64,000 nucleotides of DNA from a bacterium (GTDB lineage: Bacteria > Patescibacteriota > Microgenomatia > JAMCZE01), in contig JAKBJL010000003.1 in the NCBI GenBank assembly GCA_021836035.1, positions 4,135 through 68,134 on the forward strand, written 5' to 3'. Under the pieces are notes generated by a model that saw only the letters and a list, made by a program, of their open reading frames with translations, had not been told where the DNA came from and did not search any database. Positions 3,903 to 42,046 of this stretch are shown piece by piece; position 1 is the stretch's first letter, and each line of letters starts with the position of its first letter. A program made the translations under genes and the position numbers.

Positions 3903-3903
3903 C

Positions 3904-13259: not shown

Positions 13260-13270
13260 ACTTTTGTACC

Positions 13271-13296
13271 AATAAAAAACTTCGGCGACGCCGAAG
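13271..13296 (-). terminator. Intrinsic-terminator-like hairpin plus U-tract about 11 nt upstream of the rplJ start codon. Candidate attenuator in the L10 leader.
   Basis: Minus-strand RNA reads CUUCGGCG-U-CGCCGAAG (7-8 bp GC-rich stem) followed by UUUUUUAUU and then GGUACAAAAGU-AUG (rplJ). Confidence 0.4.
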
Positions 13297-14077
13297 TAGA
13301 ATTATAAATTCCTGCGTGAGTCTTGCACCCTTCCGGAATGCTCACGGTCTTCGGACAACCATACTATTATACATTATAACTTCCCGCGGGGTCAACCCCG
13401 ATCGCGATTGGGGCAGGCTCCCTCAGCAGGCTATAACACTGAGCGTAGCCGAAGCGCCGTTCAATTAGTCGCCAGTTTCAGCCGAGATAATCTGGCTACA
13501 ATATCTACGTTTAGGCAGAAATAGACTCCGGCGGACTTCTCGAGTTCAACCGGTACGACCGGCAGCGCGTCCGGAATAAAATTTCTCATGTTATGGTCGG
13601 GGATTTGACCGCCGCGGTATCTATGGCGTCTACCATCGTTTTATCGAAGGTGTTTCTTTAAACCCGGTCCATATTTTGATGCTTCCGCTTCGGCTTCTAA
13701 TCTTAATCTTCGTATTTTGGGCTAAAAAGATTTGCCTGACGGGAATGCCTGTTTATGGATTGCCAATCCCGCCCATACCTGGAAAGCCGTAGCTGACAAT
13801 GCTACCATTACCTTATTCGGTTTTTCTCCCAATCATTCCTCTCCTTTAGCACGGCGGGATAAGATAATTTTACCGCGCAGGTTAATTTTTCTTTAGAACC
13901 AGCAAATGCTACTTCTGATTTATTTCTAATTTAACTTTCGCTCTGGCCGTAAAATCGGTATTTATACGCGGAACAAAGCCGATGATCTAAACTTACACAG
14001 GAAAGTAGATATTACCAATTAAGGATGAAACTACTTGAAACGGGGTACTGAACAATACAAGATTCTCTTTATCATTC

Positions 14078-15334
14078 CTATCTTCGGGGATCTAGCATGG
14101 GGTGTTTGCGGTCAAAGTCTGCGGCCAATTCCGCAGCCCGTTCTTTTAAGAGACGAAAATCTGCCGGAGTGGGTACCCGGATTCCTAACTCCGGACAATG
14201 TTTGGCCAGGAATTTAATTACCTCGTGAGTTCCGTCGATATCGGTGGTAAAGCAAAGCGTTCCCCCTTCCAGTTCCGGCCGGTAAGTTTGGCGCCGTTTT
14301 CTTTCGATTGCTTCCGTTAAGTTTCGATCATAAGCATGATGTGGGGGATGGATTTCCCAGCAAACCGCTCGGCCGGGGATATCGCTGAGGAGAAAATCGG
14401 TTTTAAATCCCCGGTTTTCGTAAGAGGGAACATGCAATCTCCGGGGATCAAATTTTTCTCCGTTTTGCGAAAGATACCAGGTAATAACGGACAACCGTTC
14501 CAGAGAAGAATCGAAGCGGGTAATTTCTCCGGTCCCGAATTGATAAAAAGCCCGGGGGACAAGCGGCTTTCCGGGTTTTGCTTTTTCGGGAAGGGGGCAG
14601 GGGGGAAATTCTTCAAGTAACCGTTCCGTTTGGCCGCAATATTCCGCCTGATACGCGGCAATTAAGTTCGGATCTTTTACTTTATGATACAGCCAGTTGC
14701 GCATTTGCCCTTTAAAAAAACCCGCCAGGGAATTTTTACCGGCAAATATTTTCGGGTGCTTGGGCCAATTAGCCCAGCCGTCGTATTTTTCCCAAAAAGC
14801 GGGATTCAGACGATGATCCAGGAGAAAGGAGACAAAATCAGGATAATAGTAGCGGCTCAGCGGGGGATTGTGGTAAATCCTTTTCTTGGCGATGGTGGCC
14901 TCTTCCGGTCCGGGATAATTTTTCCGGGTAAAAATATCTACGGCGCGGCAAAATCCCGGAGCGTCGGGAGAAAGCCGGGAGGTGAATTCCTCCTCGCTTT
15001 TGCCGGTCCACTCGCGTCGTAAATTAAGATAAAGACTAAAATGGTTAACGGTTTTAAACCTGTCCAGGAAATCGCCGGAGCGCAGCGGCGAAATCCGGCG
15101 GCGGGCGTGATGGCGCAGCATAACTAAGGTGTCACCAACGGTTTCCAGGTCCCAGCCGGTTAGCCCGTAAGGGTGGGGGTTGCCGGTAATTGCTATTGCT
15201 AATTCAATTTCCGCGGGAGATTTTTCCCGATGATACCGCGGTGGAACCGATAGGGGCAAAGGATGGCCAAGAATATACTCCCTGGTAATAGGAAAAACGA
15301 AAAAATTCCCGGAAAGTTCGTTGGTTACCAGCAT
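14078..15334 (-). CDS. Hypothetical protein (418 aa).
   Basis: Long ORF with no recognisable motif. Divergent from the dockerin operon. Confidence 0.4.
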   Translation of the reverse strand: MLVTNELSGNFFVFPITREYILGHPLPLSVPPRYHREKSPAEIELAIAITGNPHPYGLTGWDLETVGDTLVMLRHHARRRISPLRSGDFLDRFKTVNHFSLYLNLRREWTGKSEEEFTSRLSPDAPGFCRAVDIFTRKNYPGPEEATIAKKRIYHNPPLSRYYYPDFVSFLLDHRLNPAFWEKYDGWANWPKHPKIFAGKNSLAGFFKGQMRNWLYHKVKDPNLIAAYQAEYCGQTERLLEEFPPCPLPEKAKPGKPLVPRAFYQFGTGEITRFDSSLERLSVITWYLSQNGEKFDPRRLHVPSYENRGFKTDFLLSDIPGRAVCWEIHPPHHAYDRNLTEAIERKRRQTYRPELEGGTLCFTTDIDGTHEVIKFLAKHCPELGIRVPTPADFRLLKERAAELAADFDRKHPMLDPRR

Positions 15335-15434: not shown

Positions 15435-17837
15435 ATGGGGCGAAATCTCCGTGTTAAATTTTTTTTAGTAATTACCTTCTTTTTGGCGTTTGTAAAACCG
15501 GTTTGGGCCGCGGATGTTTTCAGCGATAACTTCGAAAATGGTTTGGGGAATTGGCAGATAACGGCTCTGGGAAATGCGGTGGTAAATACTGCTCTGGACA
15601 CCGATCCCGGCTCTACCCATGGCAATATCCTCCATGTTTATTATCCGGGAAATAACTCCGATATCAAAATTATTTTAAAGAATTTAACTAGCTTAATTTA
15701 CGGCAAATCGAATTTAGTGTATGAGGTTGACTTTTATGACGACCCGGCCAGGGATTACGGAATTAGTTTTTATGTTCGCGATGCCTCAGGCAGATACCTG
15801 GAATTTATTGTTGATAGCCTTACCGGAAATTACCGTTTGCGAAATGATTACGGCGCGCAATCTAAATATTTTGATACCCGGATAAGCCGCAAATTAGGCT
15901 GGCATAAAATCCAGATTATCGTCAGCAGCGCGGGTGCCTATCTGGTAATTGACGGCCAGAATTCCGTTTACCTCCGCGGGCAGATTGCTTATCCCAACGT
16001 GAGTGAGATAGATTTCCCCATCTTTAACGGGCTCACGGGAATTTCCGAGGTCGGAATCGAATACCCCGCGTGGAATAAACCCGCCGGTAACAGTTACTGG
16101 GATAATTTCCGGATTTATGAACTCCGACCCCAGGCGAAAACTACTTCCCAAAAAGAGGAAGATTTAATTCTCGAATACCTGAATAGTTACGAGAGCAATC
16201 TCGGCAATGCCAATTTTCTAAACGCCGAGACTACCCTAAAAGGAATTCAGAATTTTCAACTTTCGCGCCTGGGTTTGGCAGCGGCCTATGGGGTTCGTTA
16301 TAGCGCCGGCGGCGATGTTAACGACCTGGCTAATCTGAAAAAGTATTTAACCGCCGTTATCAACGACTATTGGGCTGCCGGGGGTTGGAAAGGGCAACAA
16401 TCGGAAACGCCAATATCCGGCCAGGTTATAGCCGCCATTGCTTCCTGGCAGTGGAGCAACCTGGATACGACTCTCCGGAACAAAATTTCCGGAATATTGA
16501 ATGATATCGGCACCAATACGAACAAAAATAATTGTATAAGCTCCATGGCGGCAGGTTATGATAATAATCAGATTTCGGATAGCCGAGGAGAGGAATTTGC
16601 CTGGATTGCTTCCTACCTTAAATTTGTCTCCGATGTTTATCAGGATAAATCGGATACCCCGTCTTGCGGGGTCAACGATCCGGCTTTAACTAAATGGAGT
16701 GTGCGGGCAGCTAACTTCGCCTGTGTATCGACGACCCATGCACTTGCGACCGATCCTACTAAAATCGACCCGGGCGATATTTGTACCAGCAACCAGGCGG
16801 TCATGCCCCCCAATCCCTCCTTAACAAGTGCCTTTATCATGCGCAATCACGGAATTGATCATCCGGGTTATGCTTTGACTATTGCCTGGGGGTTGGCCCA
16901 GGCGCAACTTTATCAACTGAACCAGGGGAAAACCGAAAGCCAAATCGAAACTGATTATCGGAGGAATTTTGGTAACTTCTACACCAACAATATCTCCAAC
17001 CTCGTCCGCTTTAATAATTATTCCTATAAACCACTTACGCCGGCGGACATGATCTTTGCCTATACAGGGAAAGACGATTGGGATCAGGATGCGACGCTTC
17101 AAGATCAGGCTTGGGCCTACTTTGACATTATTTTTAAGAATCGGCCCGGCTGGAATTGGACAAATAAGCTTGACGGGATAGTTAATTATGCCTGGTTAAC
17201 ACGGGGCGGCAAAGCTTTTTATCCTCCCCTTGTTGACGGAGATTTAGCGGCCCATTGGCTTGAGCCGGAGGTAATTTCCTGCGGTCCGGGATCCTGCAAC
17301 GCTTACAAGATGAACAGCGCTCTCTATTTTTTTCTAAATTCCATGGACGCTATTGACCGCTTTGAAACACTGTTTATTATTAATCCCTCGGTTTATCCCT
17401 TGCATCTGATTTGTACTCCCAGTACCAGTTGCGGAACTAAAAACTGTGGGACAATACCTGACGGCTGCGGAGGCACCCTAAATTGTGGTCCAACCACACG
17501 GGCCTGTACGGCTGCCTTTGGGACCTGCTCTGTTACCGGAACCCAATCCTGCCAAGTCGATAATACCTACAGTCTAACCTGCACCGCTACTGATCCAAGA
17601 ACGGCCAACTGTGTCGGGAAGAACTGTGGCACTGACGGTTGTGGAGGGGTCTGTGGTACTTGTACCCTGCCCCAAGTCTGCGGCGGGGGGGGAACCCCGA
17701 ATGTTTGTGCTCCTCTCCCCGGAGATCTAAACGGAGACGGGAAAGTAAATATTACCGACCTAAAACAGCTTTTATCTTCCTTTACCAATATCTTCAATTA
17801 CAATTTAGTCGTGGCCAATTTCGGCGAAACCCAATGA
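15435..17837 (+). CDS. Large secreted protein with Cys-rich repeats and a C-terminal dockerin-like tag. First gene of a three-gene operon.
   Basis: ATG at 15435 gives the signal peptide MGRNLRVKFFLVITFFLAFVKPVWA. The track's upstream start is a TTG. C-terminal repeats KNCGTIPDGCGGTLNCG / KNCGTDGCGGVCGTC. Tag PGDLNGDGKVNITDLKQLLSSFTNIFNYNLVVANFGETQ. The stop TGA overlaps the next gene's ATG (ATGA). Confidence 0.7.
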   Translation: MGRNLRVKFFLVITFFLAFVKPVWAADVFSDNFENGLGNWQITALGNAVVNTALDTDPGSTHGNILHVYYPGNNSDIKIILKNLTSLIYGKSNLVYEVDFYDDPARDYGISFYVRDASGRYLEFIVDSLTGNYRLRNDYGAQSKYFDTRISRKLGWHKIQIIVSSAGAYLVIDGQNSVYLRGQIAYPNVSEIDFPIFNGLTGISEVGIEYPAWNKPAGNSYWDNFRIYELRPQAKTTSQKEEDLILEYLNSYESNLGNANFLNAETTLKGIQNFQLSRLGLAAAYGVRYSAGGDVNDLANLKKYLTAVINDYWAAGGWKGQQSETPISGQVIAAIASWQWSNLDTTLRNKISGILNDIGTNTNKNNCISSMAAGYDNNQISDSRGEEFAWIASYLKFVSDVYQDKSDTPSCGVNDPALTKWSVRAANFACVSTTHALATDPTKIDPGDICTSNQAVMPPNPSLTSAFIMRNHGIDHPGYALTIAWGLAQAQLYQLNQGKTESQIETDYRRNFGNFYTNNISNLVRFNNYSYKPLTPADMIFAYTGKDDWDQDATLQDQAWAYFDIIFKNRPGWNWTNKLDGIVNYAWLTRGGKAFYPPLVDGDLAAHWLEPEVISCGPGSCNAYKMNSALYFFLNSMDAIDRFETLFIINPSVYPLHLICTPSTSCGTKNCGTIPDGCGGTLNCGPTTRACTAAFGTCSVTGTQSCQVDNTYSLTCTATDPRTANCVGKNCGTDGCGGVCGTCTLPQVCGGGGTPNVCAPLPGDLNGDGKVNITDLKQLLSSFTNIFNYNLVVANFGETQ

Positions 17838-19765
17838 AGAGAATAATTTTTATTTTGTTCTTGGGAATATTTTTACTCCAGGGAAAAAAGGTCTTTGCCG
17901 CGGGATTTGCTGCACCTGCAAGGATATATGCCTCTTCGGAACTGCAGGTATCCGGGTACAACTGGAGCGCTCAAAATGTCCTGGACAACAATCCCCAAAC
18001 TGCCTGGTCGTCTAAACAACTATCCGGTCCGGATAATTCTGAATGGTTGACTTTTGATTTCGGCACTCCCGTATCCCTGGCTAAAATCATAGTCACGCCC
18101 AGAGTTTGGCAAAATCGCATTCAGGCTTTCCCGAAGGCTTTCAATATCGGCTACAGCGACGATGGCTCTACCTGGAAAATTATTCCCGGCTTTGATTTTC
18201 AAAGTTTTCCTGACCCCCAACCTAACTCTGATGGTACCGCGCCACAACTGCCATTTCCTGTTAACTCTACATATCGTTTTTTTGGCCTCGGTTTTTCCAA
18301 AGCTACCACTGACAGCTATGGGGGTTATTTTATTCAGCTGGCCGACGTCCGTTTTCTTACTAGCGAATGCACATTGGACAGCGATTGTTCCGCCGGCCAA
18401 TCCTGCCGGCAGGGAGTTTGCGGTGTCAACACTTTACCGTACTGGAATTTAAAGCCCGGCAGCTACTGGATTTTGTCCGGTACCGATAATTATAGCGGCA
18501 TTCCGCTTTCTTTTCGGCAAAGATACGATTTGGAATTACCGGAAAATATCTGCACTGACGGGTCAAACAAGAGTGTCTTAACCTGGCGCGTTACCCGAGA
18601 TGTCGCTTGCCCCTATCCCCACCAATGTTATTGGGGTAATTTAAGATTTATGTTCGTCGATCCGACAGTTGACACCAGCCCTTTTATCTGGGCCACCGCA
18701 GATAAGCGCTATACACGTAACCCGGACAGTCCATTTGCCGATATCGGTACTCTTTACCAACACAGTTATTTTAGCGGACGGTTGGATACCTCCCAACCGT
18801 ACGTGCCGCCCTATCTTTATTCGCCCAAATTCCTTCCGGGCTTAGGCAATAATCTCGAATACCGCTACAACCAAAACTATTATTGGAACTATGGCCAGCC
18901 CGGGATACCAATCGCCGATGAGAACATGTGCCGTGATACCTCGCTCGGCCGTGACCAGGCAGATTTGATTATGAGATACCAATTGACCGGCATAAATACC
19001 CCGGCGTATCATGGTCCGGCTTTATTAGTCAGTCAGGGGGAGAAGTCAAGCTGGTGTACTAGGGAAGATTGGTACTTAGCACCCAACATCGGCATTTCCA
19101 GGGTTGACCAGTGGAATTGTAATACTACCGGAAATTCCTGTTATGACGGACAGCATTTCGGCAGTTGTAACTGCAATTCCTGGACCATTGATTCCGGAAA
19201 TCACCCGAACTGCTATCAGAATTTGGCTCTACAGGATCCTGCGATGAGCATGTCCCTGGTTAAATATTATCTTGGCCATGCCTTGCAGGCTTCGGTCAAC
19301 AACACCACTTCCGTCCAAACTAACGCAAGGCAAACATTGGCTTTTAACTTTATAGATCCTTCAACCAACTTTACCTATGAGGGGCAGCTGGATACGGAAA
19401 ACAGTTTTATTTCTCCCGACGGTAATTCCCTCGTTGCTGCTGGGAAATGGAATACTTGGGTCGGAACGGACGGCAAAGTGACTATGACCATTGGCCAAAA
19501 TATTCTTCCCGGTACCTACCGCACTCGCTTCCGCCCTCATTTTTTCAGTTCGCCTGACAGCGCCTTACAAACTAATGCCGAATCTGTTACCGGGCAAAAC
19601 AACCTTCCCTGGAGCAACGAAGTAACTCTAACTATCAATCCGATTCCCGGCGACTTAAACGGCGACGGCCAGGTTAATATCGCCGATTTACGGGCCTTGC
19701 TCGGAAACTTTTCCGGCATCTTCAATTACAATTTAGTCGTGGCCAACTTTGGCAAAACCCAATGA
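17834..19765 (+). CDS. Secreted protein with an F5/8 type C (discoidin) domain and a C-terminal dockerin-like tag.
   Basis: Signal peptide MKRIIFILFLGIFLLQGKKVFA. The discoidin-like segment is YNWSAQNVLDNNPQTAWSS...WLTFDFG...YSDDGSTW. C-terminal tag PGDLNGDGQVNIADLRALLGNFSGIFNYNLVVANFGKTQ. ATGA stop/start overlaps at both ends. Confidence 0.7.
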   Translation: MKRIIFILFLGIFLLQGKKVFAAGFAAPARIYASSELQVSGYNWSAQNVLDNNPQTAWSSKQLSGPDNSEWLTFDFGTPVSLAKIIVTPRVWQNRIQAFPKAFNIGYSDDGSTWKIIPGFDFQSFPDPQPNSDGTAPQLPFPVNSTYRFFGLGFSKATTDSYGGYFIQLADVRFLTSECTLDSDCSAGQSCRQGVCGVNTLPYWNLKPGSYWILSGTDNYSGIPLSFRQRYDLELPENICTDGSNKSVLTWRVTRDVACPYPHQCYWGNLRFMFVDPTVDTSPFIWATADKRYTRNPDSPFADIGTLYQHSYFSGRLDTSQPYVPPYLYSPKFLPGLGNNLEYRYNQNYYWNYGQPGIPIADENMCRDTSLGRDQADLIMRYQLTGINTPAYHGPALLVSQGEKSSWCTREDWYLAPNIGISRVDQWNCNTTGNSCYDGQHFGSCNCNSWTIDSGNHPNCYQNLALQDPAMSMSLVKYYLGHALQASVNNTTSVQTNARQTLAFNFIDPSTNFTYEGQLDTENSFISPDGNSLVAAGKWNTWVGTDGKVTMTIGQNILPGTYRTRFRPHFFSSPDSALQTNAESVTGQNNLPWSNEVTLTINPIPGDLNGDGQVNIADLRALLGNFSGIFNYNLVVANFGKTQ

Positions 19766-22269
19766 GAAAATTTTATCTACTCTCGTGTTTGCTTTTTGTT
19801 GGCATTTTTGTATCCGCGCGGCCGGTTTTTTCCCAAATTACCCTTCCGCCGACAGATCGGGTTGATACTCACACTTTCGTTGTCTTTAATGGCAAGCTTC
19901 GGGAGCTGGTTATCAAAGGCGACAGGGTTTGGTGGCGCGATTCTGCCGACACAACGGAAAAAAGTTTTCCGGCGAACTGGAGTTCTAAATCTTTAGCCGA
20001 AGCTTGGCCGGCAAGTATTTCTCCGATTGGCCACCCCTTGCCTATCTCGGGTATAGACGCCCATGCTTATCAGCGGTTTCCCGGTTGCGGTAATTTCGCC
20101 AATTTTGTCACGGAAATTGTCATTAAGGGTAATGAAGAATGGTACCGCCGGTCATCGGATATCACCGGGAGCGACCTTGGGGGTAAAGTTTTCACCTATA
20201 CCACTCTGCCCGCCGTTTGGGGGAATTCCGGACCGCCGACCGATTTTATTGACGCTTTGAACTATGATATTTTCGACGGAAATCCGCGGGAGTTGGTTCT
20301 TAAGGGCGGTAATATTTGGTACCGGACTATAAATTGTGCCAATTCCCAGCTATCCGGCTGGTCTCAAGTCAGTTTATCTTCGGCTTGGGGGTCTAACCTA
20401 AATCCACCACCTTTAACTGGCGCCATAGATACTTATGCCACAGATTACGCTGCCTCGGACAACTCTTGGGAAATTGTCACCCAAGGTAATCGGGTTTGGG
20501 CGAGACGTTCCTTTGACACTAACAGCCACCACGAAAGTGATGTTTGGCGACCGATGACCTTAAGCGATCTCTGGCAGAGGAATTCTATTTCTCTTTCAGA
20601 TTCCGATATAGCCAGTCGGTTCATTGATAAATTTATGTCAATTTATGGCAGCACTGATTTTTCCGCTGTCATAAATTATCCTTATGCCAGCGCCTTTGAT
20701 TCCCAAAATAATTTCCGGGCTCTTATGGGTCAAGCTTTAGCGCACACCGTCAAATTCCGTTTAAGTAATAATTCTTCGGTATCCGATTTGACAAAGGCGA
20801 AAAGTTACCTCAACGCGACCCTCGACCACTATTCGACGTGGGGCAAAGATTTTCTCTCAGAAGATATTATCCGAAGTACCCTTCTTGCTTCGTGGGTAAT
20901 TTGGGACCAACTGTCGGATGTTGAAAAAGCCAATATTTACAACGTAGCTAAAGCTGATGCCGACTTCTGGTCAGCTAAATTGGCCGAAGCTCAAGCTGGT
21001 GGCCCCTTCTTATTTAAAATGCAGCGGGACTGCCAAGATCCTAACAGCCAGTGTTATTACAACACCAGCGCTGAAGAGAACGGAGGAATTGTGGGCGGGC
21101 TTGCGTTTACGGCTATTATGTATCCGAATGACCCGTCAGCCTGGAAATGGCAACAGGCGGCGAGATGTTTTGCTTTCCACACGATTACTACCGGAGAAAC
21201 TTCCTGCGGAATAACTACGCAGACAGTGGCCAGTGACTTTAGTTTGACCGAACACGGCTTCACCCCCTCGGTTGTTTATACTTTAGCCGCTCTTTCCGAG
21301 CTCGATCAGGCTGGTTTGGGCTACTTTCTCGGCGGATATTATACCCCGCCAGAACTTCACCATAACACGGCCCCTCTTTGGTCCAAATTTTTCACTTATT
21401 TTCATCCGGGAGATTACACTATCTATAATCAATATTTTCGGGGGCAGGACTGGGGCGATATTGATGTTTGGCTGGCTATGACCGATTTTAATTATTTGTC
21501 TTTAATTGACAATCCTTCAGGGTTAAGCGCTGCAAATGTAGGGAATCTAGCTTTTGACATCACGCATTATTTTTACACGATAAAGAAAGACGATCTGCGT
21601 TTTCCTGAAGCCGGACCCGTGATCTCCATGCCGGTAACGGGAACCACCACGAGCAGTTGGTTTCAAAATTCTTTAACTCACGCCAAGGGTTCTGCGGAAA
21701 TAATCATTTACCAAAACCCCGGATATTTCTTTTGTAACGGCAATGTTGACCGGCTTGGCCGGTCAACCCATTTGTGTAACAGTGCCGTCCCGGTACAGAC
21801 TTTTCCGACCTGCACCGCCACTACTTGTACCGCCCAAGGCAAAAACTGCGGGACGATTTCCGACGGCTGCTGGGGAACTTTAAACTGCGGTGCCTGTGCT
21901 GCCACCCATTCCTGTGTCAGTAATGTCTGTACCTGTGATCCGGCCAAATGTACTCTTCCCAATACCTGCAATAACAATGTTTGTTCCTGCATCCCGGAAT
22001 CAGATGTTGCTTTCTGTTCCCGTTTGGGAAAAAACTGCGGCAGTGTGACCGCAGCGGATAACTGCGGAACCCAAAGAACGGTAAGTAGCTGTGGCGGTTG
22101 TAATTTACCCGACGTCTGCGGCGGGGGAGGAACACCAAACATTTGCGGATCCCTCCCGGGAGATCTAAACGGAGACGGGAAAGTCAATATTTTGGATCTG
22201 CGCCAACTTCTTTCCGGCTCCGATACTATTTTCAGTTACAACACCGTGGTGACAAACTTCGGGAGGTGA
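19762..22269 (+). CDS. Large secreted Cys-rich protein with a C-terminal dockerin-like tag.
   Basis: Signal peptide MRKFYLLSCLLFVGIFVSARPVFS. The C-terminus carries GKNCGTISDGCWGTLNCGAC... and PGDLNGDGKVNILDLRQLLSGSDTIFSYNTVVTNFGR. A 35-nt stretch encoding GDLNGDGKVNI is near-identical to the one in 15435..17837. Confidence 0.7.
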   Translation: MRKFYLLSCLLFVGIFVSARPVFSQITLPPTDRVDTHTFVVFNGKLRELVIKGDRVWWRDSADTTEKSFPANWSSKSLAEAWPASISPIGHPLPISGIDAHAYQRFPGCGNFANFVTEIVIKGNEEWYRRSSDITGSDLGGKVFTYTTLPAVWGNSGPPTDFIDALNYDIFDGNPRELVLKGGNIWYRTINCANSQLSGWSQVSLSSAWGSNLNPPPLTGAIDTYATDYAASDNSWEIVTQGNRVWARRSFDTNSHHESDVWRPMTLSDLWQRNSISLSDSDIASRFIDKFMSIYGSTDFSAVINYPYASAFDSQNNFRALMGQALAHTVKFRLSNNSSVSDLTKAKSYLNATLDHYSTWGKDFLSEDIIRSTLLASWVIWDQLSDVEKANIYNVAKADADFWSAKLAEAQAGGPFLFKMQRDCQDPNSQCYYNTSAEENGGIVGGLAFTAIMYPNDPSAWKWQQAARCFAFHTITTGETSCGITTQTVASDFSLTEHGFTPSVVYTLAALSELDQAGLGYFLGGYYTPPELHHNTAPLWSKFFTYFHPGDYTIYNQYFRGQDWGDIDVWLAMTDFNYLSLIDNPSGLSAANVGNLAFDITHYFYTIKKDDLRFPEAGPVISMPVTGTTTSSWFQNSLTHAKGSAEIIIYQNPGYFFCNGNVDRLGRSTHLCNSAVPVQTFPTCTATTCTAQGKNCGTISDGCWGTLNCGACAATHSCVSNVCTCDPAKCTLPNTCNNNVCSCIPESDVAFCSRLGKNCGSVTAADNCGTQRTVSSCGGCNLPDVCGGGGTPNICGSLPGDLNGDGKVNILDLRQLLSGSDTIFSYNTVVTNFGR

Positions 22270-22291: not shown

Positions 22292-23500
22292 ATGGGCAAA
22301 AGCGTAGGTTTTGTTTTGCGGGTAGTTTTCGTCCTTTCTTTTCTTTCGGCCTTCTTATTTTTATCCTTGAATCCGGTTCAAGCCTACAACATTTTCAATC
22401 AGAGCCTGCATGAGCAAAACTAACTTTCTTTTATTAAGGCCGTTTCCAACCGCTATATAAATATTAATCCGTTTCCGGACTATACAATAGCCAAAAGCGG
22501 AGGGTTAACTGATTATTACCGGGTAGTTTGCAGCCAGGTGGTCATTAGTTCGATCAGCAAACTGGCGGCAGGGCAACCCCTTTCCGCAAATTCTCCGGAG
22601 ATGGGATTGATGATGGCCAATTTCAATAATGATTTCAACCAAATCGCTAGCCCGAATAATCCTTGGTTCTGGCTGGCCTCCGCCCCCGGATTTGATTGTC
22701 TGATTGCTCTTGACCTTAACCGGGACGTTATCCCGCTTCAGGCCAGAAACGCTGCTCTCGGCGAGATAAATATTCTGGCAGACATTATATACAACCCCTT
22801 TAATCGAATTACCTGCTGATTCGACCTGGTTGATGAAATACACTACAGGAACCTGGAGAAATGAAGCTATCGCTAACTACAATTGGACGTCGGTAAACGA
22901 CGACTACCGCCAGGTTACTACGCTTAATCAATTTGGCCTGACTCTTATGGATTCCTCCGCTTTTATGCCAGCTTTTACCGGCTGGCAATATCAAATTATG
23001 ACGGTGACCGATAGTTACCTGGTTGCTTTTAAGGACATGATTCCGGAAGTCGCCAGGCTGTTAGGTGATTACGTTAAAGCCGATGCGGATATATATATAA
23101 ATAAGATAGCGGCGGCTAAATCCGATTGGTACAGTTCGTTGACAGAATCCTACTACGGAAACGAACATGGTCAGGTCTATCCGGTTGATGCTTATCAGCT
23201 TTTCCTGGCCAGGTCCTGGATCGACAAAGAATCTCCTGATAACCCGCGCATTATTTAAGTATTCCCTATACCCCGGTTGGGGACTTCTTTTATATGCAAA
23301 AGCTGGCCGAGACCATTAAAGCTTACCGGGGTTGGGCCTGGTCTGACGGGGGAGGGCCGACTCCGCCGCTGACCCTTGCCGGAGACCTAAACGGAGATAA
23401 CCACGTCGATATTGCCGATTTAAGAATCGCCATTGCGGGGTTCAGCAATCTTTACAACATATATAGTATCTCGGAAATAATCGGTAATTTCGGTAAATAA
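22292..23500 (+). pseudogene. Decayed paralog of the dockerin-tagged secreted proteins, broken into at least four frame-shifted pieces.
   Basis: A 43-codon ORF from ATG 22292 encodes only a signal peptide (MGKSVGFVLRVVFVLSFLSAFLFLSLNPVQA) and then stops. Co-directional ORFs 22538..22819, 22830..23258 and 23294..23500 lie in different frames. The last is a standalone dockerin-like tag, LAGDLNGDNHVDIADLRIAIAGFSNLYNIYSISEIIGNFGK. Confidence 0.45.
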
Positions 23501-23565: not shown

Positions 23566-24750
23566 ATGAAAATAACGGAGCGGTTGGGGTTACTTAAGTT
23601 AGCGAAACGCAACTGGACAATGTTGTTGGTGGTTGGAATTCTCCTTATCTCTCTCGTGGCTACAGTTTTTCTGGTTCAGCGACAACAGCAAATGCGGGGT
23701 AAAGCGGCCGGAGCCAGCGTTACTTTAGCTATGTCTTCGGCGGTAAATTCTACAAACCATGCGATGGTAGGAACTCCTTTCACTGTCAATGTATCTATCG
23801 GCAATCAAACGGATGCTTACGAAATTTCCGCCGCTAATGTGGTCGTAACTTATGATTCTAATCTTTTAGACCTGGGTACCAATCCGGTTGCCCTGGGCAG
23901 CTTTTTCCCCTTTCCCAGCGGAACGGAAATGCTTAACAAAGTAGATACGGCAACGGCGGGCAGGGTGAGTTTTGCCTTGGGCGCGGCTTGTCCTACCGTT
24001 ATCCCGGCTCCGACCCCCGTCAACGGCCAAACTCCCTGTTCGACTAATAGAGGCTCCGGAATTTTAGCCACGCTCAATTTCGTCCCCAAAGCGGCCGGTA
24101 CAGCCAATGTGGCTATTATTGCGGATAGCGGTAATACCGCGATAGCGGCTGTCGGGCAGACGGCAACCGTACTGACAAGTACTGCTGTTTCTCCGCTCAG
24201 CCTGCCGATCGATCCCGCGCCGGTGACTACTCCCACCCTTTCCTTCTCGGTGACCGTTCAGGAAGCCATTACGATTCCTACCACCCCCCGCGGAACTATG
24301 GCAGCGAATTTGACTCTTTTAAACCCCACAACCGGTGCCGTTGTTGGCTCTCCGTTTAGTATCACCATGAGCCAAAACAGAACCAGCGGTTTGTATGAGA
24401 CCACCTCTCCGGTTGTTCTAACAGGCATAACTCCCGGCTCTTATCGGGTCATGCTTGATGGGGTAGGGCATTTGAAAAAGGAACTGACAAAGGTTAATGG
24501 TGTTTCTACGCCCGTAAATTTAGTTGGTGGATCCAATACTCCCGACTGGAAGGCCCAACAACTTTTTGGTGGCGATGCGATCAAGGATACGGCAAATACG
24601 GTTAACGCTTTAGATTTCGGGAAACTGGCCGGGGATTTCTTAAACTCTGCTACCCAGGGGACCAGTACGGCAGACTTTAACTTTGATGGCCGGGTGGATG
24701 CGCTGGATTTTGGTGCTTTAGCAGGAAATTTCCTGAAAGCAGGAGATTAA
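23566..24750 (+). CDS. N-terminally membrane-anchored cohesin-domain protein with a C-terminal Ig-like module and a two-segment dockerin. Adaptor/scaffoldin-like.
   Basis: Signal-anchor TM MLLVVGILLISLVATVFLV. The cohesin-like domain (VGTPFTVNVSIGNQ...VVVTYDSNLLDL...GILATLNFVPKAAGTANV) follows the spacing of cellulosomal cohesins (YDPxxL, G.F.KI.AxxK). The C-terminus has a duplicated dockerin segment, NTVNALDFGKLAGDFL / DFNFDGRVDALDFGALAGNFL. Confidence 0.65.
   Translation: MKITERLGLLKLAKRNWTMLLVVGILLISLVATVFLVQRQQQMRGKAAGASVTLAMSSAVNSTNHAMVGTPFTVNVSIGNQTDAYEISAANVVVTYDSNLLDLGTNPVALGSFFPFPSGTEMLNKVDTATAGRVSFALGAACPTVIPAPTPVNGQTPCSTNRGSGILATLNFVPKAAGTANVAIIADSGNTAIAAVGQTATVLTSTAVSPLSLPIDPAPVTTPTLSFSVTVQEAITIPTTPRGTMAANLTLLNPTTGAVVGSPFSITMSQNRTSGLYETTSPVVLTGITPGSYRVMLDGVGHLKKELTKVNGVSTPVNLVGGSNTPDWKAQQLFGGDAIKDTANTVNALDFGKLAGDFLNSATQGTSTADFNFDGRVDALDFGALAGNFLKAGD
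24231..24750. repeat. Copy 1 of a 520-bp near-identical direct repeat encoding the shared C-terminal Ig-like + dockerin module.
   Basis: Sequence tcccaccctttccttctcggtgaccgttcaggaagccattacg ... gcaggagattaa. It matches 26866..27385 with a single mismatch seen by eye (cctaccacc vs cccaccacc). Confidence 0.8.
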
Positions 24751-27427: not shown

Positions 27428-28090
27428 ATGACAAATATAAATAAAAAAGGAGAGTTGATCACGGTAGGTTTATTAGTAATCGCGGTAGCAGCAGTCAGTT
27501 TGGTGGCAGGGATGGTCTTAGGATTAAATAAAATTAACTTAAAACTACCGGTGACTTCTCAAGTAGAAAATAATCAGGGAAATAATAACGGCAAACCACA
27601 GATTCCGGAAGTACGAAATACTCCTGAAATAAAAAATAAGCCCAAGCTCTCTCTGACCGCTGTTCCGAGCACAATAGCGGTCGGCCAAAATACTAACGTA
27701 ACCATTAATATAGATTCCAACGGGAACAAGCTTCAGGTTGTTCAATTAACCCTGAGTTTTGATCCTAAAAAGCTGAAGGTAGTTGACGCTGATCCTAAGG
27801 CTGCCGGGGTACAGATAGAGCTAAAAAATTTATTTGCTAATCAGAATAACCTTGCGAATCGAGCGGATAACGATAAAGGGAAAATAACCTTAGCCATCGG
27901 TAGCCTGACTAATACTTTTGATGGTAAAGGAGTTTACGGAATAATAAAAATGATCGCTTTGCAACCTACTTCTAGTCCGACGATGATTAGTTTTGACCCA
28001 GACCCAGATACTTTGGTTGTTCCCCAGAGGGCTAATCAGGCTGCCAAAATTGAAGAAGAGCCCTTATCTTTAAGCATTAGCCCTAAATGA
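27428..28090 (+). CDS. Membrane-anchored single-cohesin-domain protein.
   Basis: TM LITVGLLVIAVAAVSLVAGMVLGL. Cohesin-like segment LTAVPSTIAVGQNTNVTINIDSNGNKLQVVQLTLSFDPKKLKVV...GKGVYGIIKMIALQ. Confidence 0.6.
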   Translation: MTNINKKGELITVGLLVIAVAAVSLVAGMVLGLNKINLKLPVTSQVENNQGNNNGKPQIPEVRNTPEIKNKPKLSLTAVPSTIAVGQNTNVTINIDSNGNKLQVVQLTLSFDPKKLKVVDADPKAAGVQIELKNLFANQNNLANRADNDKGKITLAIGSLTNTFDGKGVYGIIKMIALQPTSSPTMISFDPDPDTLVVPQRANQAAKIEEEPLSLSISPK

Positions 28091-35345: not shown

Positions 35346-35960
35346 ATGGTGAGTTGGTTCTTGCGAAAGAGAGTTCTCCTTGTTTTCCTTTTTATATTGG
35401 CGGTTATTATTCTGGCGGAATTTGCCTATTATTTTATCCTTCTTGGGCACAGAAAAGTCCCCCTAACTGCAGGAAAACAAGGCGAGGCGGTAAGTTCCCA
35501 CCGAAATATGCTGCCGGAAGATTACGAAATTCCCTCAAGCGCAACCGGTAAACTAACGGACACCATAAGTTTGGAGAAGGACATAAGCAGTCTTAATTTA
35601 ATTACGGACAAGAGTTTAAAGGCTCTGGCTACTGTCTCCGGAGTATCGGCCTCTTTTAACGGAACTTCTTTTGAAAAGGTAATGGGGGGTAAAGTTATTA
35701 AGGTCGAAGAGACCAACGACAAATACCAGATTACTCTGCAGCAAGAGCAGGGTGCGGTATCGGTACAATTAGCATCGGGTCTAATTCTTTACTCGAAGAA
35801 TAAAGACATATTTATTGCTAGGCAAATTGTTTGGGGTAACAAGGATTTTGAGAAATATTTTTTAGATCAGGTCAGACCGGGTAAAGAAATAATGCTCTCG
35901 GATGTGGCTGGGGAAGCGGGGGGGCAACTTAGTGCCGGGAAAATTATCGTTGTAAATTAA
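35346..35960 (+). CDS. Membrane-anchored hypothetical protein.
   Basis: N-terminal TM LLVFLFILAVIILAEFAYYFILL. No recognisable motif. Confidence 0.35.
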   Translation: MVSWFLRKRVLLVFLFILAVIILAEFAYYFILLGHRKVPLTAGKQGEAVSSHRNMLPEDYEIPSSATGKLTDTISLEKDISSLNLITDKSLKALATVSGVSASFNGTSFEKVMGGKVIKVEETNDKYQITLQQEQGAVSVQLASGLILYSKNKDIFIARQIVWGNKDFEKYFLDQVRPGKEIMLSDVAGEAGGQLSAGKIIVVN

Positions 35961-35963
35961 CAC

Positions 35964-38978: not shown

Positions 38979-39044
38979 AAGGGGATTCCTTTGCCATACT
39001 TCGACCCGGTTGACTTCTTCTGCTTTCTGAGTTAAGAAAGCCCT

Positions 39045-39800: not shown

Positions 39801-39869
39801 AAGTCGCTTACCGGACTCGTCGGATTTCTCCCATTGTCAGTAATACAGGTAGGTGCTAATCTGAAATTA

Positions 39870-41951
39870 ATGAGGGTTGCCGGGATGTTGGTGTTGGCCA
39901 CGGGGGTAATTGTCGGATTATTTCTTTTCTTCCGTGCCGGTACGGTAAAAGCCCAGACGTGTGGTCTTTGTAACGGGGGTAAAGATTCCACTTGTTCCTG
40001 CGGGATTTACGGCCAAACCCGGGTAGCTCCCTGTTGCGATAGTGCTCCCAGTTGCCGCTTCTTAGGTTTTGAGGGCTGTCATGTAGATCCTTCGGGAACC
40101 GGTTGTGTTCCCACTGGCTGTGCCGGTGGCGGCGGGGGAGGAGGACTTACCTGTAATGAGAACGGAGGTTGGTGTGTGGGCGATTTATGTACAGACGAAA
40201 ATGCCGAAAAAACAGGCTCGTGTGGTTCCTATTGGATTACCGGCGTAAACGCCCAGAACTGGGACGAAACAACCTGCAAGCAGCGTAATTGGACTTATCC
40301 AGGTGTTCCGGTAAAGAAAGATAATGGGAACGGTTACTGGTTGCCGAAAGGACAATGTACGGGCGCCTGTAGACTGTCGGGAAAAACCTGCGGAGAGGGA
40401 ACCTGTAAGGATGTCTGCAATAATGATGTTCCCTGTAACATAGCGTGTCCGTCTCCTACTCCGCCTCCGCAATATCCTGTCTGCGATAGTCTTAACGTCG
40501 CTCAGTCCGGCCCTTATGCTCCGGCGACAATGACTATCAATTTAACCGGGCATACGGTTAATGGCGGCGTCATTAATACTTACGGGTTAGATATTATTGA
40601 CCCGACAGGGAAAACTAATCACTATGAAAATACTACGGGTAAATTCAGCATCTCTTTTAATCTCCCGGGGAATTACCAATTTACCGGTACCGTGATAGAC
40701 AACCTGGGTAAAACTTCTATCTGTAAAAGTACTTCGGTAACTTTACTGAAACCTCCGTTGTCCTGCAATTTAACTTTATATGACGCGCCGACAAATGATT
40801 TGGTTATCGGCGAGATATACCAAGCCTTGAAAGCAAGGGTTGATCTTACAAATAGCACGGACTACAACGATGTGAAAAAAGTGGAATTTACTTCTTCTAA
40901 TGGTCAGGCTATTCAAATTGACCCTGCGGTTATCGATTGGTATGTATATAACGGCATTTACGGGACAGATCTAAATATTAAGGGTGTAGCAAAAAAGATA
41001 TTTATTAAAGCCACAGCTACGTTGAGGAATGGGAAAATTTGTTTCGATGAGGTGGAGATAAATTCAACCTGGTTTCCTGCTTGGTGGCAAGCTAACCAGC
41101 CATCCGCGTACGGTGATATTTTTGCTTTTGACGAAATTAAGGACCCCATTTTTACCGACTTGAGCACCTTTTTGGATCTGGGGAACAATCCCGCGAAACA
41201 CTCTGCTGCCGTAGCTACCAATAGGGGAACCACCGGGTTTCCCACGCCGGACCTTAGCGGGGTCCCGGTAAACAAACTGAATAGTGCTATGTGGAAGATT
41301 AAAACGAATTCCCTCTACCCGGTGGGGCAGGCGGGACAGTATTTAAGCTATGACTACTGGTACAAATATCTAGGTGGGGATAGTTCGGTCCAAACCATGA
41401 CCGATAATGTTAATTCCGCTAATTATCTTGATGACCATTTGACGGAGGGTATATATACCCCCAGTCCTGGTCCGAACCTGCATATTCATCATAAACAGCA
41501 AATCAGTGCCGGGAAATATTTAATCATTTTAGTTCCCGGCAATCTTTATATCGATTATGCGGTGTCTGGCGAGGGGACCTGGATTGAACGTACGGATCCG
41601 ACCGCTTTTATAGCTTTCATTGTCAAAGGAAATATTATAATTGCGAACGGTCTGCAAAATGGGAATAATCCCTTGCTGGACGGGGTATATATTGCCCAAG
41701 GGAAATTCCAGACGGGGACTAGTATTGATTACTCAGGCGATAAAGATCCTAAGGATCCGAATAATCAAAATAAACAATTCCGTGGACGGGGGATTTTTGC
41801 CGCGGGCGGTGGATTTACCCTGGATCGGGATTTAACCAATCTTAATAATAAACAACCGGCAGAGATCTTCGATTATGACCCCTCATTGGTTCTTAACGCT
41901 CCTGCCATTATTCGTCGCTCGCATTACACTTGGGCGGAAATTGCCCCATAA
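39870..41951 (+). CDS. Large secreted Cys-rich surface protein. Paralog of 35964..38978.
   Basis: The internal ATG gives the signal MRVAGMLVLATGVIVGLFLFFRAGTVKA followed by QTCG. The shared C-terminal domain is WWQANQPSAYGDIFAF...FLDLGNNPAKHS...YDPSLVLNAPAIIRR. Confidence 0.6.
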   Translation: MRVAGMLVLATGVIVGLFLFFRAGTVKAQTCGLCNGGKDSTCSCGIYGQTRVAPCCDSAPSCRFLGFEGCHVDPSGTGCVPTGCAGGGGGGGLTCNENGGWCVGDLCTDENAEKTGSCGSYWITGVNAQNWDETTCKQRNWTYPGVPVKKDNGNGYWLPKGQCTGACRLSGKTCGEGTCKDVCNNDVPCNIACPSPTPPPQYPVCDSLNVAQSGPYAPATMTINLTGHTVNGGVINTYGLDIIDPTGKTNHYENTTGKFSISFNLPGNYQFTGTVIDNLGKTSICKSTSVTLLKPPLSCNLTLYDAPTNDLVIGEIYQALKARVDLTNSTDYNDVKKVEFTSSNGQAIQIDPAVIDWYVYNGIYGTDLNIKGVAKKIFIKATATLRNGKICFDEVEINSTWFPAWWQANQPSAYGDIFAFDEIKDPIFTDLSTFLDLGNNPAKHSAAVATNRGTTGFPTPDLSGVPVNKLNSAMWKIKTNSLYPVGQAGQYLSYDYWYKYLGGDSSVQTMTDNVNSANYLDDHLTEGIYTPSPGPNLHIHHKQQISAGKYLIILVPGNLYIDYAVSGEGTWIERTDPTAFIAFIVKGNIIIANGLQNGNNPLLDGVYIAQGKFQTGTSIDYSGDKDPKDPNNQNKQFRGRGIFAAGGGFTLDRDLTNLNNKQPAEIFDYDPSLVLNAPAIIRRSHYTWAEIAP

Positions 41952-42046
41952 AAACTGCATAGCGAGCGTTTGGCGGCCAGTATATAGAAGAGAATAAAAA
42001 TCTGGAATTTCCTTTACGCTACGAACTTCCCGCTTTATGCTTAGAT

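Follow-up and report, generated by a model that had tools for sequence, protein, structure and literature searches.

A probable cohesin–dockerin surface assembly locus outside the cellulosome in a Patescibacteria (CPR) bacterium

The DNA analysed here (64 000 nucleotides, referred to as the window) was taken from an ultra-small bacterium of the Patescibacteria (CPR), probably of the Microgenomates/Gottesmanbacteria type. Genes for secreted proteins with a common C-terminal tag adjoin four cohesin genes in it, and the cluster, which resembles a cellulosome docking kit, recurs in many related genomes. This raises the question of whether proteins are assembled on the envelope of such a bacterium by cohesin–dockerin interaction, outside a cellulosome. 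Judged from the sequence, this is probably the case; the reading is based on cohesin homology and fold, the dockerin ancestry of the tag, the tight, recurrent linkage of the genes and the experimental precedent of cohesin binding by a one-loop dockerin (PMC12270676). A preliminary description had proposed such a system, with cohesins tethered by N-terminal transmembrane (TM) segments and genes within 13260..42046. Its core was upheld; the tethering is clear for the product of gene 27428 only. The range is too wide at its right end and omits the tagged ORFs at 2064–4146; positions 29540–42046 hold MurF, Ddl, a ChaN-like gene, an IS200 fragment and unrelated secreted proteins.

Table 1. Features of the cluster and the sortase gene (window positions); genes are named in the text by their first position.
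Position	Strand	Features	Evidence and remarks
2064..3902	−	Cargo: Sec signal peptide (…VVFA/ADYF), beta-helix region, FN3, C-terminal short tag	Tag is the last 41 aa (DNA ~2067..2189), E = 4e-20
3904..4146	−	80-aa ORF, mostly tag	Tag E = 2.6e-21
15435..17837	+	Cargo: signal peptide (…VWA/ADVF), large domain of no recognised family, KNCGT..DGCGG repeats, short tag	Stop overlaps start of next gene (ATGA)
17834..19765	+	Cargo: signal peptide, F5/8 type C (discoidin), further domain, short tag	PF00754, 1.1e-15
19762..22269	+	Cargo: signal peptide, domain of no recognised family, Cys-rich repeats, short tag	87% identical to L012, 4491-6779
22292..23500	+	Cargo pseudogene: intact signal peptide (MGKSVGF…NPVQA), stops and frameshifts, intact tag at 23375..23497	Three-frame translation; tag E = 1.4e-20
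22830..23258		ORF, internal fragment of the pseudogene	
23566..24750	+	TM segment, LVQRQQQMRGKAA motif, cohesin, Ig-like domain, two-repeat dockerin-like module	Pfam, family HMM, AF2, Foldseek
24231..24750	+	520-nt duplicate (Ig-like domain and dockerin)	Copy at 26866..27385, end of next gene
24755..27385	+	TM segment, cohesin, ~5 FN3/Ig-like domains, Ig-like domain, two-repeat dockerin-like module	Pfam, family HMM
27428..28090	+	Small membrane cohesin: 24-residue N-terminal TM anchor, ~45-aa polar linker, cohesin, nothing more	Pfam, family HMM
28087..29577	+	Hydrophobic N-terminal segment, VQNRQLFFKKAA motif, cohesin, PT-rich linker, Big_13 Ig-like domain, PPETAS, hydrophobic C-terminus	
55184..55873	−	Sortase gene	PF04203, 5.3e-16

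Four cohesin genes and their anchoring

All four tandem genes named in the preliminary description are present as ORFs with a hydrophobic start followed by a cohesin domain. The Pfam search suggested there bore this out in part: PF00963 was matched above the gathering threshold by 24755 (40.8 bits, profile positions 12–139 of 139), 27428 (25.2 bits) and 23566 (24.4 bits), and for 28087 Big_13 was returned only, with no cohesin match. A family HMM that was built from relatives outside the window only matched all four (E = 3e-28 for 24755, 5.6e-27 for 28087, 2e-23 for 27428 and 4e-15 for the remaining one) and nothing else in the window. By using a profile of the four window cohesins, solved type II cohesins were matched (3l8q, E = 3e-6). 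The fold was supported for 23566: the AF2 model, with a pLDDT of 70–94 over the domain, resembles about 30 solved cohesins, and the top Foldseek matches were all cohesins, the best being a non-cellulosomal cohesin from Clostridium perfringens (2vo8, E = 2.8e-7, TM 0.83). The C-terminal half of this model is of low confidence and uninformative on docking of the protein's own dockerin onto its own cohesin. One cohesin is present per protein in the window. The small cohesin of the 27428 type was also observed at loci L005, L007 and L012.

Genes 23566 and 24755 had been counted among the bearers of the cargo tag, but the module at their ends is another one, dockerin-like and with two repeats (...VNALDFGKLAGDFL...ADFNFDGRVDALDFGALAGNFLKAGD); it scored 22.3 and 21.4 bits, respectively, with Dockerin_1, against a Pfam threshold of 22.9. 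The duplicated ends of the two genes differ by one mismatch, at 24279; one public assembly breaks at this repeat. In 24755, fn3 was matched with 2.3e-22.

Anchoring of the cohesins is mixed. The N-terminal segments of the four proteins are more hydrophobic than the cargo signal peptides (Kyte–Doolittle 19-residue maxima of 2.25–3.02 versus 1.87–2.09) and may stay uncleaved. In 23566, 24755 and 28087, the hydrophobic segment is followed by a conserved motif, Q..R.[KR]A, and then by the cohesin; cleavage may occur at the motif. In three of the four proteins, about 10–15 residues separate the cohesin from the TM segment; if the segment is uncleaved in these three, the binding site would lie under the cell wall and not on the cell surface. 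In 28087, the hydrophobic C-terminus (KD 2.75) is preceded by an LPXTG-like PPETA, and relatives end in IPVTG and LPVTA, with IPVTG and a hydrophobic tail in the orthologue at L005 (10649-11668). This end may be a sortase signal or may itself serve as a C-terminal anchor, and the sortase of Table 1 is a possible processing enzyme for the protein; such processing, if true, would represent the classical sortase type of anchoring.

Short C-terminal tag and its cargo

A tag of 38–41 aa closes six ORFs, of which two are remnants (profile E from 1e-17 to 1e-21 per copy, far beyond chance). At least seven tagged proteins had been reported; the tag is real, and the count is six of one kind and two of another, the latter being the two-repeat modules. 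In the tag, a single complete dockerin calcium loop, with its ligands at positions n, n+2, n+4, n+6 and n+11 (alignment columns that are invariant or almost so), and a helix are followed by a second repeat with the loop deleted; the turn between the helices often reads NPYT, and the terminus NFGK or NYGK is near-invariant. With the tag profile, the best PDB sequence matches were dockerins (2mte, 2e-5; 2y3n_B, 3e-5), above EF-hand proteins. Two metagenome proteins share the repeat DIFDYNxLVxNFGK, which belongs to a normal two-repeat dockerin in one (P0052) and to a truncated tag in the other (P0014). By comparison of sequences, the tag is thus clearly a dockerin derivative, its second helix appearing as the remnant of a repeat 2 that lost the calcium loop. 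The AF2 model (loop, helix 22–31, helix 41–48, pLDDT 72) matches the reported arrangement of RfDoc2, a one-loop dockerin that is functional (PMC12270676); fold searches with this model returned no matches.

The dockerin match expected in Pfam was not obtained: none reached 22.9 bits, the tag scored about 18 bits, and of four full-length tag proteins that were scanned, three yielded at most a sub-threshold dockerin match (18.3 bits for 15435, over profile positions 2–17 only). The accompanying demand that the tag form an F-hand pair was too strict, natural single-loop dockerins being functional.

This low score, the extreme C-terminal position of the tag (127 of 128 copies end no more than 4 residues from the stop codon), its near-invariant end, as in sorting signals, and the sortase gene in the window would suit another role: a Ca2+-stabilised module for a different envelope component (peptidoglycan, S-layer or glycan) or a removable C-terminal sorting signal, with cohesin binding confined to 23566 and 24755, through their two-repeat dockerins. 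Conservation points the same way. Between this genome and L012, tags are 75–87% identical and cohesin proteins only 28–31%. Partners in tight co-evolution would not be expected to differ so much in this respect, unless conservation is confined to the binding face. However, the tag has neither a hydrophobic stretch (C-terminal KD maximum 0.5–1.0) nor a charged tail, unlike sortase, PEP-CTERM or similar signals, and its set of Ca ligands is complete, in what is clearly a truncated dockerin. One-loop dockerins do bind cohesin, as is known since 2025 from Ruminococcus flavefaciens (PMC12270676), and cohesin genes lie directly 3' of tag genes or are fused to them (see below). We consider this alternative unlikely.

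The cargo domains noticed earlier (discoidin, FN3, a weak beta-helix and Cys-rich KNCGT..DGCGG repeats) were found in the window. The beta-helix of 2064 matched NosD below threshold (21.1 bits), and its FN3 domain matched that of chitinase A1 (1.4e-5). No PDB relative was found for 15435. Homologues of 2064 (P0262) and 15435 (P0241) bear the same tag. ORF 3904..4146 is probably the remnant of a cargo gene; public assemblies list it as a gene (P0011).

Linkage of tags and cohesins in other Patescibacteria

The tag is common across Patescibacteria. Among 20 retrieved loci of 10 kb or more, 15 have cohesin genes beside a tag gene: 5 of the 7 from genomes, each with a full-length tag, and 10 of the 13 from metagenomes. 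Two of the latter are duplicates of genome loci. Of 57 cohesin ORFs, 20 begin no more than 100 bp from where a tag gene on the same strand ends; for 35, the distance from such an end is −100 to +2000 bp. The gene order of the window is repeated in L012 and L005, and ten ORFs encode cohesin and tag in one protein. Gene linkage is evidence of a functional connection, not of contact; we infer physical binding, the pairing of cohesins with dockerins and their stoichiometry.

Two of the six tags in the window stand on remnants or pseudogenes and the Pfam scores are marginal, as might be expected if the modules were evolutionary leftovers that serve as inert spacers, clustered through co-regulation of secreted proteins only. 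This is highly improbable: conservation of the tag is strong between genomes and on cargo proteins that are not homologous, its Ca ligands hardly vary, and cohesin adjacency and fusion recur in dozens of independent contigs.

In the favoured cohesin–dockerin assembly, five or six cargo proteins would be exported via Sec by means of classical cleavable signal peptides. Each would end in the short dockerin (one calcium loop, helix, turn, second helix), which would dock with Ca2+ on the beta-sheet face of envelope-held cohesins from the four neighbouring genes. The 27428 protein would be a small cohesin anchored in the membrane at its N-terminus, and that of 28087 would be held by its C-terminal sortase-like signal or hydrophobic anchor. 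The products of 23566 and 24755, with N-terminal TM segment, cohesin, Ig or FN3 stalk and ordinary two-repeat dockerin, would link cohesin proteins to one another as adaptors or as a lateral network.

A mainly structural or adhesive role has also been considered, in which proteins with both modules (23566, 24755 and the fusions elsewhere) bind head to tail into a lattice or fibres for host-cell attachment; the cargo would then serve as accessory adhesins. Proteins that bear both modules are the rule at these loci, 24755 has a long FN3 stalk, and CPR bacteria have an attached, host-dependent lifestyle. Some cohesin–tag fusions carry a Cys-rich module starting GGWSAWSAKNPACG, which would suit such a role. 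No recognised catalytic domain was found in the window cargo, for which the earlier statement that no obvious cellulase is present holds. Elsewhere, the same tag is borne by GH43-like cargo and by secreted GH10 (6.5e-26), GH16 (4e-15), Peptidase_S8 (8e-58) and beta-helix proteins, which, by analogy, appear to follow the logic of cellulosomal enzymes. The GH10, GH16 and S8 proteins are clear hydrolases and speak against a mainly structural or adhesive role, as does the hypothetical nature of self-recognition within one protein type. This reading is improbable; it overlaps with cohesin–dockerin assembly instead of excluding it.

Comparison with known systems

With the cellulosomes of Clostridia (Acetivibrio thermocellus CipA/SdbA, A. 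cellulolyticus ScaA/ScaB) the locus shares the cohesin fold and sequence family, secreted cargo with a C-terminal Ca-binding dockerin-type module, cohesin–dockerin proteins resembling adaptor scaffoldins and, in the wider tag family, GH10, GH16 and GH43-like enzymes. It differs from them in the absence of a multi-cohesin scaffoldin, SLH and CBM from the window, in the single Ca loop of the cargo dockerin, where cellulosomal ones have two, in the N-terminal TM segments of the cohesins and in its CPR host, with no recognised cellulase in the window.

To describe the system as not well described was an overstatement in general, since non-cellulosomal cohesin and dockerin modules have been documented in all three domains of life, for example in Archaeoglobus fulgidus, ANME archaea and C. 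perfringens toxin complexes (Peer et al. 2009, as cited in PMC9012536). For CPR bacteria, no paper on such modules was found in a literature search. Those systems, too, are known from non-cellulolytic organisms, with diverse cargo, few or no scaffoldins and a proposed role in organising the cell surface (PMC9012536); their dockerins have two repeats, unlike the CPR cargo tag. No description was found for them of a tight, operon-like order of tag genes followed by TM-cohesin genes, nor of the single-loop tag.

ScaE of R. flavefaciens is a sortase-anchored scaffoldin. Its cohesin is bound by the group-2 truncated dockerins of that species (Duarte et al. 2025, PMC12270676; PDB 9gvb), which, like the CPR tag, are naturally short: a helix–loop–helix follows their one Ca loop. 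The truncation differs: RfDoc2 keeps one canonical helix and a group-4-specific helix 4 (PMC12270676), whereas the CPR tag retains a helix from each repeat, its losses being confined to the second loop and the linker helix. Group 2 comprises about five members, all in a single species, whereas the CPR tag is common across Patescibacteria. One group-2 member is joined to a cohesin-like module, as in the CPR fusions, and 2:1 binding was seen in R. flavefaciens (PMC12270676). ScaE is the cell-anchoring scaffoldin, and 28087 has the LPXTG-like end.

Cohesin domains and two kinds of dockerin

The four tandem genes at the downstream end of the gene run had been described as cohesin genes from their sequence spacing, and this was borne out by Pfam for three of them, by a leave-out HMM for all four and by a fold match for 23566 (ORFs are named by their window coordinates). 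The scan with PF00963 (threshold 24.1 bits) gave 40.8 bits for 24755 (whole length), 25.2 bits for 27428 and 24.4 bits for 23566, with no match for 28087 in Pfam. The leave-out HMM was trained on non-window relatives alone, several of which are Pfam-annotated cohesins; it matched the four proteins at 4e-15 to 3e-28 (28087: 5.6e-27), with one cohesin in each, and no other window ORF. A profile of the four segments matched solved type II cohesins of A. cellulolyticus (E = 3e-6). Word-indexed searches returned six small proteins for the cohesin profile and 27428 as its own sole match.

The fold, a flattened beta-sandwich (jelly-roll) of about 140-150 residues in PF00963, was judged on the model of 23566 alone among the four. 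The AF2 model had pLDDT values of 70-94 across the cohesin (residues about 50-220); its C-terminal 170 residues, including the protein's own dockerin region, were under pLDDT 50. The best 29 matches in the PDB (Foldseek) were all cohesins, with E values down to 2.8e-7 and target TM scores up to 0.83, both reached by the best match, 2vo8, a non-cellulosomal cohesin of C. perfringens. The Pfam score assigns three of the four proteins to the cohesin family and the leave-out HMM all four, and 23566 belongs there by predicted fold too.

Features of the window (positions in nucleotides)
Feature	Position	Strand	Remarks
Tagged ORF	2064..3902	-	Upstream of the run, opposite strand
Tagged ORF	3904..4146	-	Upstream of the run, opposite strand; 80-aa remnant
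Gene run	15435-29577	+	Tight array, cargo genes first, cohesin genes last
Cargo gene	15435..17837	+	Stop/start overlap with neighbour
Cargo gene	17834..19765	+	Stop/start overlaps with neighbours
Cargo gene	19762..22269	+	Stop/start overlap with neighbour
Decayed fourth cargo gene	~22292..23500	+	Signal peptide and C-terminal tag intact; stops and frameshifts inside
Cohesin gene	23566..24750	+	End of run
Cohesin gene	24755..27385	+	End of run
Cohesin gene	27428..28090	+	End of run
Cohesin gene	28087..29577	+	End of run
Post-TM motif	23650-23700, 24850-24885, 28160-28200		Also in cohesin ORFs of loci L005, L007, L010, L012 and L088
C terminus of 28087	29470-29577		PPETAS and hydrophobic segment
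520-nt duplicate	24231-24750, 26866-27385		Single mismatch (24279)
Intervening-sequence-like ORF	30889-31182		Weak match to 23S rRNA intervening-sequence protein
IS200/Y1 transposase fragment	33884-34357		Truncated
Secreted paralogues	35964-38978, 39834-41951	+	Cys-rich N-terminal regions
CvpA-CAP/SCP fusion	48106-49083		Membrane domain (colicin V production) fused to CAP/SCP domain
Sortase gene	55184..55873	-	PF04203, 5e-16; 26 kb from cluster

Six ORFs, including the decayed cargo gene, end in PGDLNGDGKVNIxDLxxLLxxF(xNPY)xIFxYNxVVxNFGK. Two subtypes are present: the tags of 15435, 17834 and 19762 lack NPY, and those of 2064, 3904 and the decayed gene have N[PL]Y. The first half of this tag is a complete dockerin calcium loop with its helix. 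Dockerin ligands occupy loop positions n, n+2, n+4, n+6 and n+11, an arrangement that the tag keeps in its one loop; in 23 aligned tags, N(n+2) and D(n+11) are invariant and D(n) and D(n+4) are conserved in at least 90 %. The second half, left unplaced in the preliminary description, is a second repeat reduced to 'IF[DN]Y..hh.NFGK'. Among metagenome relatives, P0052 is an ordinary two-repeat dockerin, each repeat reading D.NGDGKVDIFDYNLLVANFGK, and P0014 reads GDLNGDGKVDIFDYQELIKNFG-NPWT-IFDYQKIIQNFGK; the tag is therefore read as a full repeat 1 followed by repeat 2 minus its loop.

PF00404 describes two tandem repeats of ~22 residues, each with a calcium-binding loop and an F-hand helix, and the tag has one loop only. 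None of the six tags reached the PF00404 threshold (22.9 bits) in Pfam: two scored 18.3 and 18.2 bits, with the match limited to profile positions 1-17, and 2064, 3904 and 17834 gave no match. The cohesin proteins 23566 and 24755, said in the preliminary description to share the cargo tag, instead end in a two-repeat module with a canonical second loop (DFNFDGRVDALD) and an irregular first one; these modules gave the best scores of the scan, 22.3 and 21.4 bits, likewise below 22.9. When the tag profile was searched against the PDB, dockerins ranked above EF-hand proteins, the matches spanning the first repeat only. The claim that the first half of the tag is a dockerin calcium repeat is thus upheld by conserved ligands and PDB matches, although not by the PF00404 score. 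The AlphaFold model of the tag shows, with moderate confidence, a loop and a helix, then a turn and a second helix; fold searches with this model gave no matches, and a word-indexed search with the tag profile returned only proteins of <90 aa. A reading of the tag as a sortase, PEP-CTERM or T9SS-type sorting signal was rejected because it has no hydrophobic segment and retains its calcium ligands.

One-loop dockerins have a precedent. Group-2 dockerins of R. flavefaciens have one calcium loop in a loop-helix-loop-helix arrangement and bind ScaE with two dockerins on each cohesin, and several artificially halved dockerins retain full affinity (PMC12270676). In view of this precedent, the earlier demand that the tag form a calcium-binding F-hand pair was too strict. 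The tag, a module of ~45 residues, has the group-2 layout: one calcium loop and a helix, then a loop and a second helix. The second helix differs: in group 2 it corresponds to helix 4 of group 4, whereas in the tag it repeats the first ('IFDYN.LV.NFG'), groups 2 and 4 being compared here by their description. This suggests that a symmetric two-repeat dockerin was truncated independently; the likeness to group 2 is accordingly taken as functional and the tag is not classed as a member. It would be a second, much larger natural family of one-loop dockerins, apparently truncated differently from that of R. flavefaciens, and would bear on how small a dockerin can be and still bind, and on short-tag design for synthetic enzyme assemblies. 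By analogy with group 2, two short dockerins might be bound per cohesin.

Occurrence of the tag and linkage with cohesin genes

Generic multi-repeat proteins with calcium loops dominated an exhaustive HMMER profile search over 1.84 billion cluster representatives, yet its top 150 included at least 17 proteins with one full-length tag at the extreme C terminus. For contigs, a six-sequence tag alignment was used, whose pattern FGNPYTIF favours the NPYT subtype, so that the fetched loci are biased towards it. In 80 metagenome loci, a stop codon follows within four residues of 127 of 128 full-length tags. Loci sharing the tag are labelled Gottesmanbacteria, Microgenomates or 'Patescibacteria group', and the source of the window is accordingly taken to be a CPR bacterium of this type.

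Tagged proteins elsewhere carry GH10 (6.5e-26), GH16 (4e-15), Peptidase_S8 (8e-58) and beta-helix/NosD domains, with weaker matches to GH43 and GH79/30. Within the window, the cargo and cohesin proteins gave no match to a GH, CBM or SLH family (Pfam, NCBIfam), and the main domains of 15435 and 19762 were unmatched in Pfam, NCBIfam and PDB sequence searches. The earlier remark that there is no obvious cellulase cargo accordingly applies to the window; elsewhere the tag sits on GH10 and GH16 enzymes. The product of 19762-22269 is 87 % identical across 709 aa to that of L012:4491-6779 (MAG DBS2-1.bin56), against 28-41 % for neighbouring orthologues, which suggests either a recent exchange of this tagged gene between lineages or a mosaic locus.

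Tag scanning was carried out on one genome per species and, separately, on metagenome contigs, and the fetched DNA was then searched with the cohesin HMM. A cohesin ORF was present in five of seven genome loci of at least 10 kb with a full-length tag and in 10 of 13 such metagenome loci (two of them duplicates of genome loci), but in only four of 23 metagenome contigs of <3 kb; longer contigs thus more often include a cohesin, as they should if the genes are neighbours. Of 44 genome loci matched by the calcium loop alone, 10 held cohesin ORFs, mostly in Paenibacillus and archaea. Across the tag-bearing loci, 20 of 57 cohesin ORFs begin no more than 100 bp from where a same-strand tag gene ends and 35 lie at -100 to +2000 bp from a tag gene end. 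A further arrangement, fusion with the tag, is seen in 10 of the 57, in the order N-terminal TM segment, cohesin, sometimes a Cys-rich module, and tag.

The gene order of the window is repeated in L012, with five tandem tag genes, Coh-Ig-Doc, Coh-FN3-Ig-Doc and a small TM-cohesin, and in a Gottesmanbacteria locus (L005), which runs from a tag gene through a small TM-cohesin and a C-terminally anchored cohesin-Ig protein to a cohesin-dockerin protein. On an unrelated contig (L003), three cohesin genes adjoin rplJ/rplL, as in the window, and relatives there have 2-3 cohesins per protein. This linkage is the strongest new evidence and, as gene neighbourhood, speaks for binding only indirectly.

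Three of the TM-cohesin-tag fusions (L080:1519-2382, L101:10117-10965 and L105:2198-3052) have a Cys-rich module in between, GGWSAWSAKNPACG..GTQTRTCTNP..NC.G, which by eye resembles a thrombospondin type 1 repeat. In a Nanoarchaeia MAG (L022:2259-3041), a gene ending in a dockerin-type calcium loop lies ~100 bp ahead of one for a small TM-anchored cohesin, in the same pattern as in the window, and a Bathyarchaeota MAG (L023) has a small TM-cohesin ORF ~6 kb from a calcium-loop match. Five Paenibacillus loci (L036, L037, L043, L055 and L058) hold runs of 3-5 very large ORFs (up to ~1,700 aa) matching the cohesin HMM together with dockerin-type calcium-loop matches, a candidate multi-cohesin system.

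Envelope anchoring and proposed assembly

The signal peptides of the cargo proteins are of the ordinary kind, with AXA-type sites; the N-terminal segments of the cohesin proteins are longer and more hydrophobic. That of 27428, a small type recurring in L005, L007 and L012, is followed by a polar linker of 45 residues and for this reason looks like a true signal anchor. In 23566, 24755 and 28087, a conserved motif (LVQRQQQMRGKAA, RQVSNRQETRTKA and VQNRQLFFKKAA) comes directly after the hydrophobic segment; within the window, a simple pattern search detected it on these three proteins only. Relatives have the same motif (RRQEVRTRA, TRQELRQKAA, QSQDVRSRA, KKQDTRSRA), and the consensus, [KR]xQ[DE][IVT]R[STDK][KR]A[AS], stands directly before the cohesin in most of these cohesin proteins (e.g., LVQRRQEVRTRA, VKTRQELRQKAA and MKQSQDVRSRA). 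It coincides with the cleavage position of related cohesin proteins bearing classical signal peptides, and may be a processing site or a retention signal.

Sortase substrates are recognised by a C-terminal LPXTG-type motif, a hydrophobic segment, a positively charged tail and a sortase in the genome. 28087 ends in PPETAS and 19 hydrophobic residues, without a charged tail; its Gottesmanbacteria orthologue ends in IPVTG and a hydrophobic tail, also uncharged, and the third cohesin of L003 in LPVTA, a hydrophobic tail and KFFKKD. Given these ends and the sortase gene in the window, 28087 may be anchored to the wall by sortase, its motif being imperfect and the link to the sortase inferred. In R. 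flavefaciens, ScaE is anchored to the wall by sortase, the classical arrangement. Direct tethering by N-terminal TM helices, as first proposed for all four cohesins, is therefore retained for 27428 but would not simply apply to the others, given the post-TM motif and the end of 28087.

CPR bacteria account for a large part of bacterial diversity and depend on other cells, and their surface proteins are mostly unannotated. In the mechanism judged most likely, cargo would be exported by Sec, the C-terminal short dockerin would fold round one Ca2+ and dock onto an envelope-held cohesin, and the two cohesin-stalk-dockerin proteins would join cohesin proteins together. In this scheme, domain identities, tag ancestry and gene linkage rest on observation, and binding, partner specificity, stoichiometry and topology are inferred. 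Two points count against so simple a picture: between this genome and L012 the tags are 75-87 % identical and the cohesin proteins 28-31 %, and an uncleaved N-terminal anchor would leave three of the cohesins no more than ~15 residues from the membrane. Such a docking system would give a role to many 'hypothetical' secreted CPR proteins and offer a testable handle on how hydrolases and adhesins are organised on CPR surfaces.

A cellulosome is a multi-cohesin scaffoldin, anchored by SLH domains or sortase, that gathers plant-cell-wall CAZymes. The window differs in having one cohesin per protein and no GH, CBM or SLH match among its cargo and cohesin proteins; relatives have 2-3 cohesins (L003) and GH cargo. 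A wider reading, tentative and rather doubtful, is that Patescibacteria as a group possess a minimal membrane- and wall-anchored 'mini-cellulosome', in which a one-calcium dockerin loads hydrolases (GH10, GH16, S8 proteases, beta-helix enzymes) and adhesins onto single-cohesin anchors, and cohesin-dockerin proteins chain these into extended surface assemblies. If this were true, ultra-small host-dependent cells would gain a modular means of arming their surface to feed on host envelopes or to attach to them.

According to PMC9012536 (which cites Peer 2009, Bayer 1999 and Haimovitz 2008), non-cellulosomal cohesin and dockerin modules are documented across all three domains of life, binding has been demonstrated for archaeal cohesin-dockerin pairs, and many such modules are encoded by ANME archaea. 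The general idea is therefore not new, and to call such systems not well described was too sweeping. For four features, no description was found in the open-access literature, outside which one may exist: the CPR setting, a very common one-loop tag truncated differently from that of R. flavefaciens, tag genes paired in operon-like fashion with single-cohesin anchors, and frequent TM-cohesin-tag fusions. The preliminary description was largely right in observation; its interpretation was right at the core, with some details wrong or overstated. What emerges is a well-supported system that can be tested, from a little-understood region of the bacterial tree, and not a new principle.

Surroundings of the cluster

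The cluster is flanked by housekeeping genes (glycogen synthases, rplJ/rplL/rplA/rplK/nusG, MurF and Ddl) of a small-genome bacterium, and identical proteins are present in public MAG assemblies. The 520-nt duplicate ends precisely at the stop codons of the adjacent genes 23566 and 24755, and indicates both recent gene conversion and an assembly hazard. The public contig DAHXMT010000001.1 terminates 120 bp upstream of 27428, about 160 bp beyond the second copy. An assembly artefact as the source of the identical C termini is less likely, because the copies differ by one mismatch and both architectures recur, in diverged sequences, in the relative L012.

The two large secreted paralogues, 35 % identical across their C-terminal 314 aa, lie in the range assigned to the system in the preliminary description; they had no match to Pfam, NCBIfam, cohesin or dockerin and, as far as can be told, stand outside the docking system. 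The remaining ORFs of note are the intervening-sequence-like ORF, the transposase fragment and the CvpA-CAP/SCP fusion.
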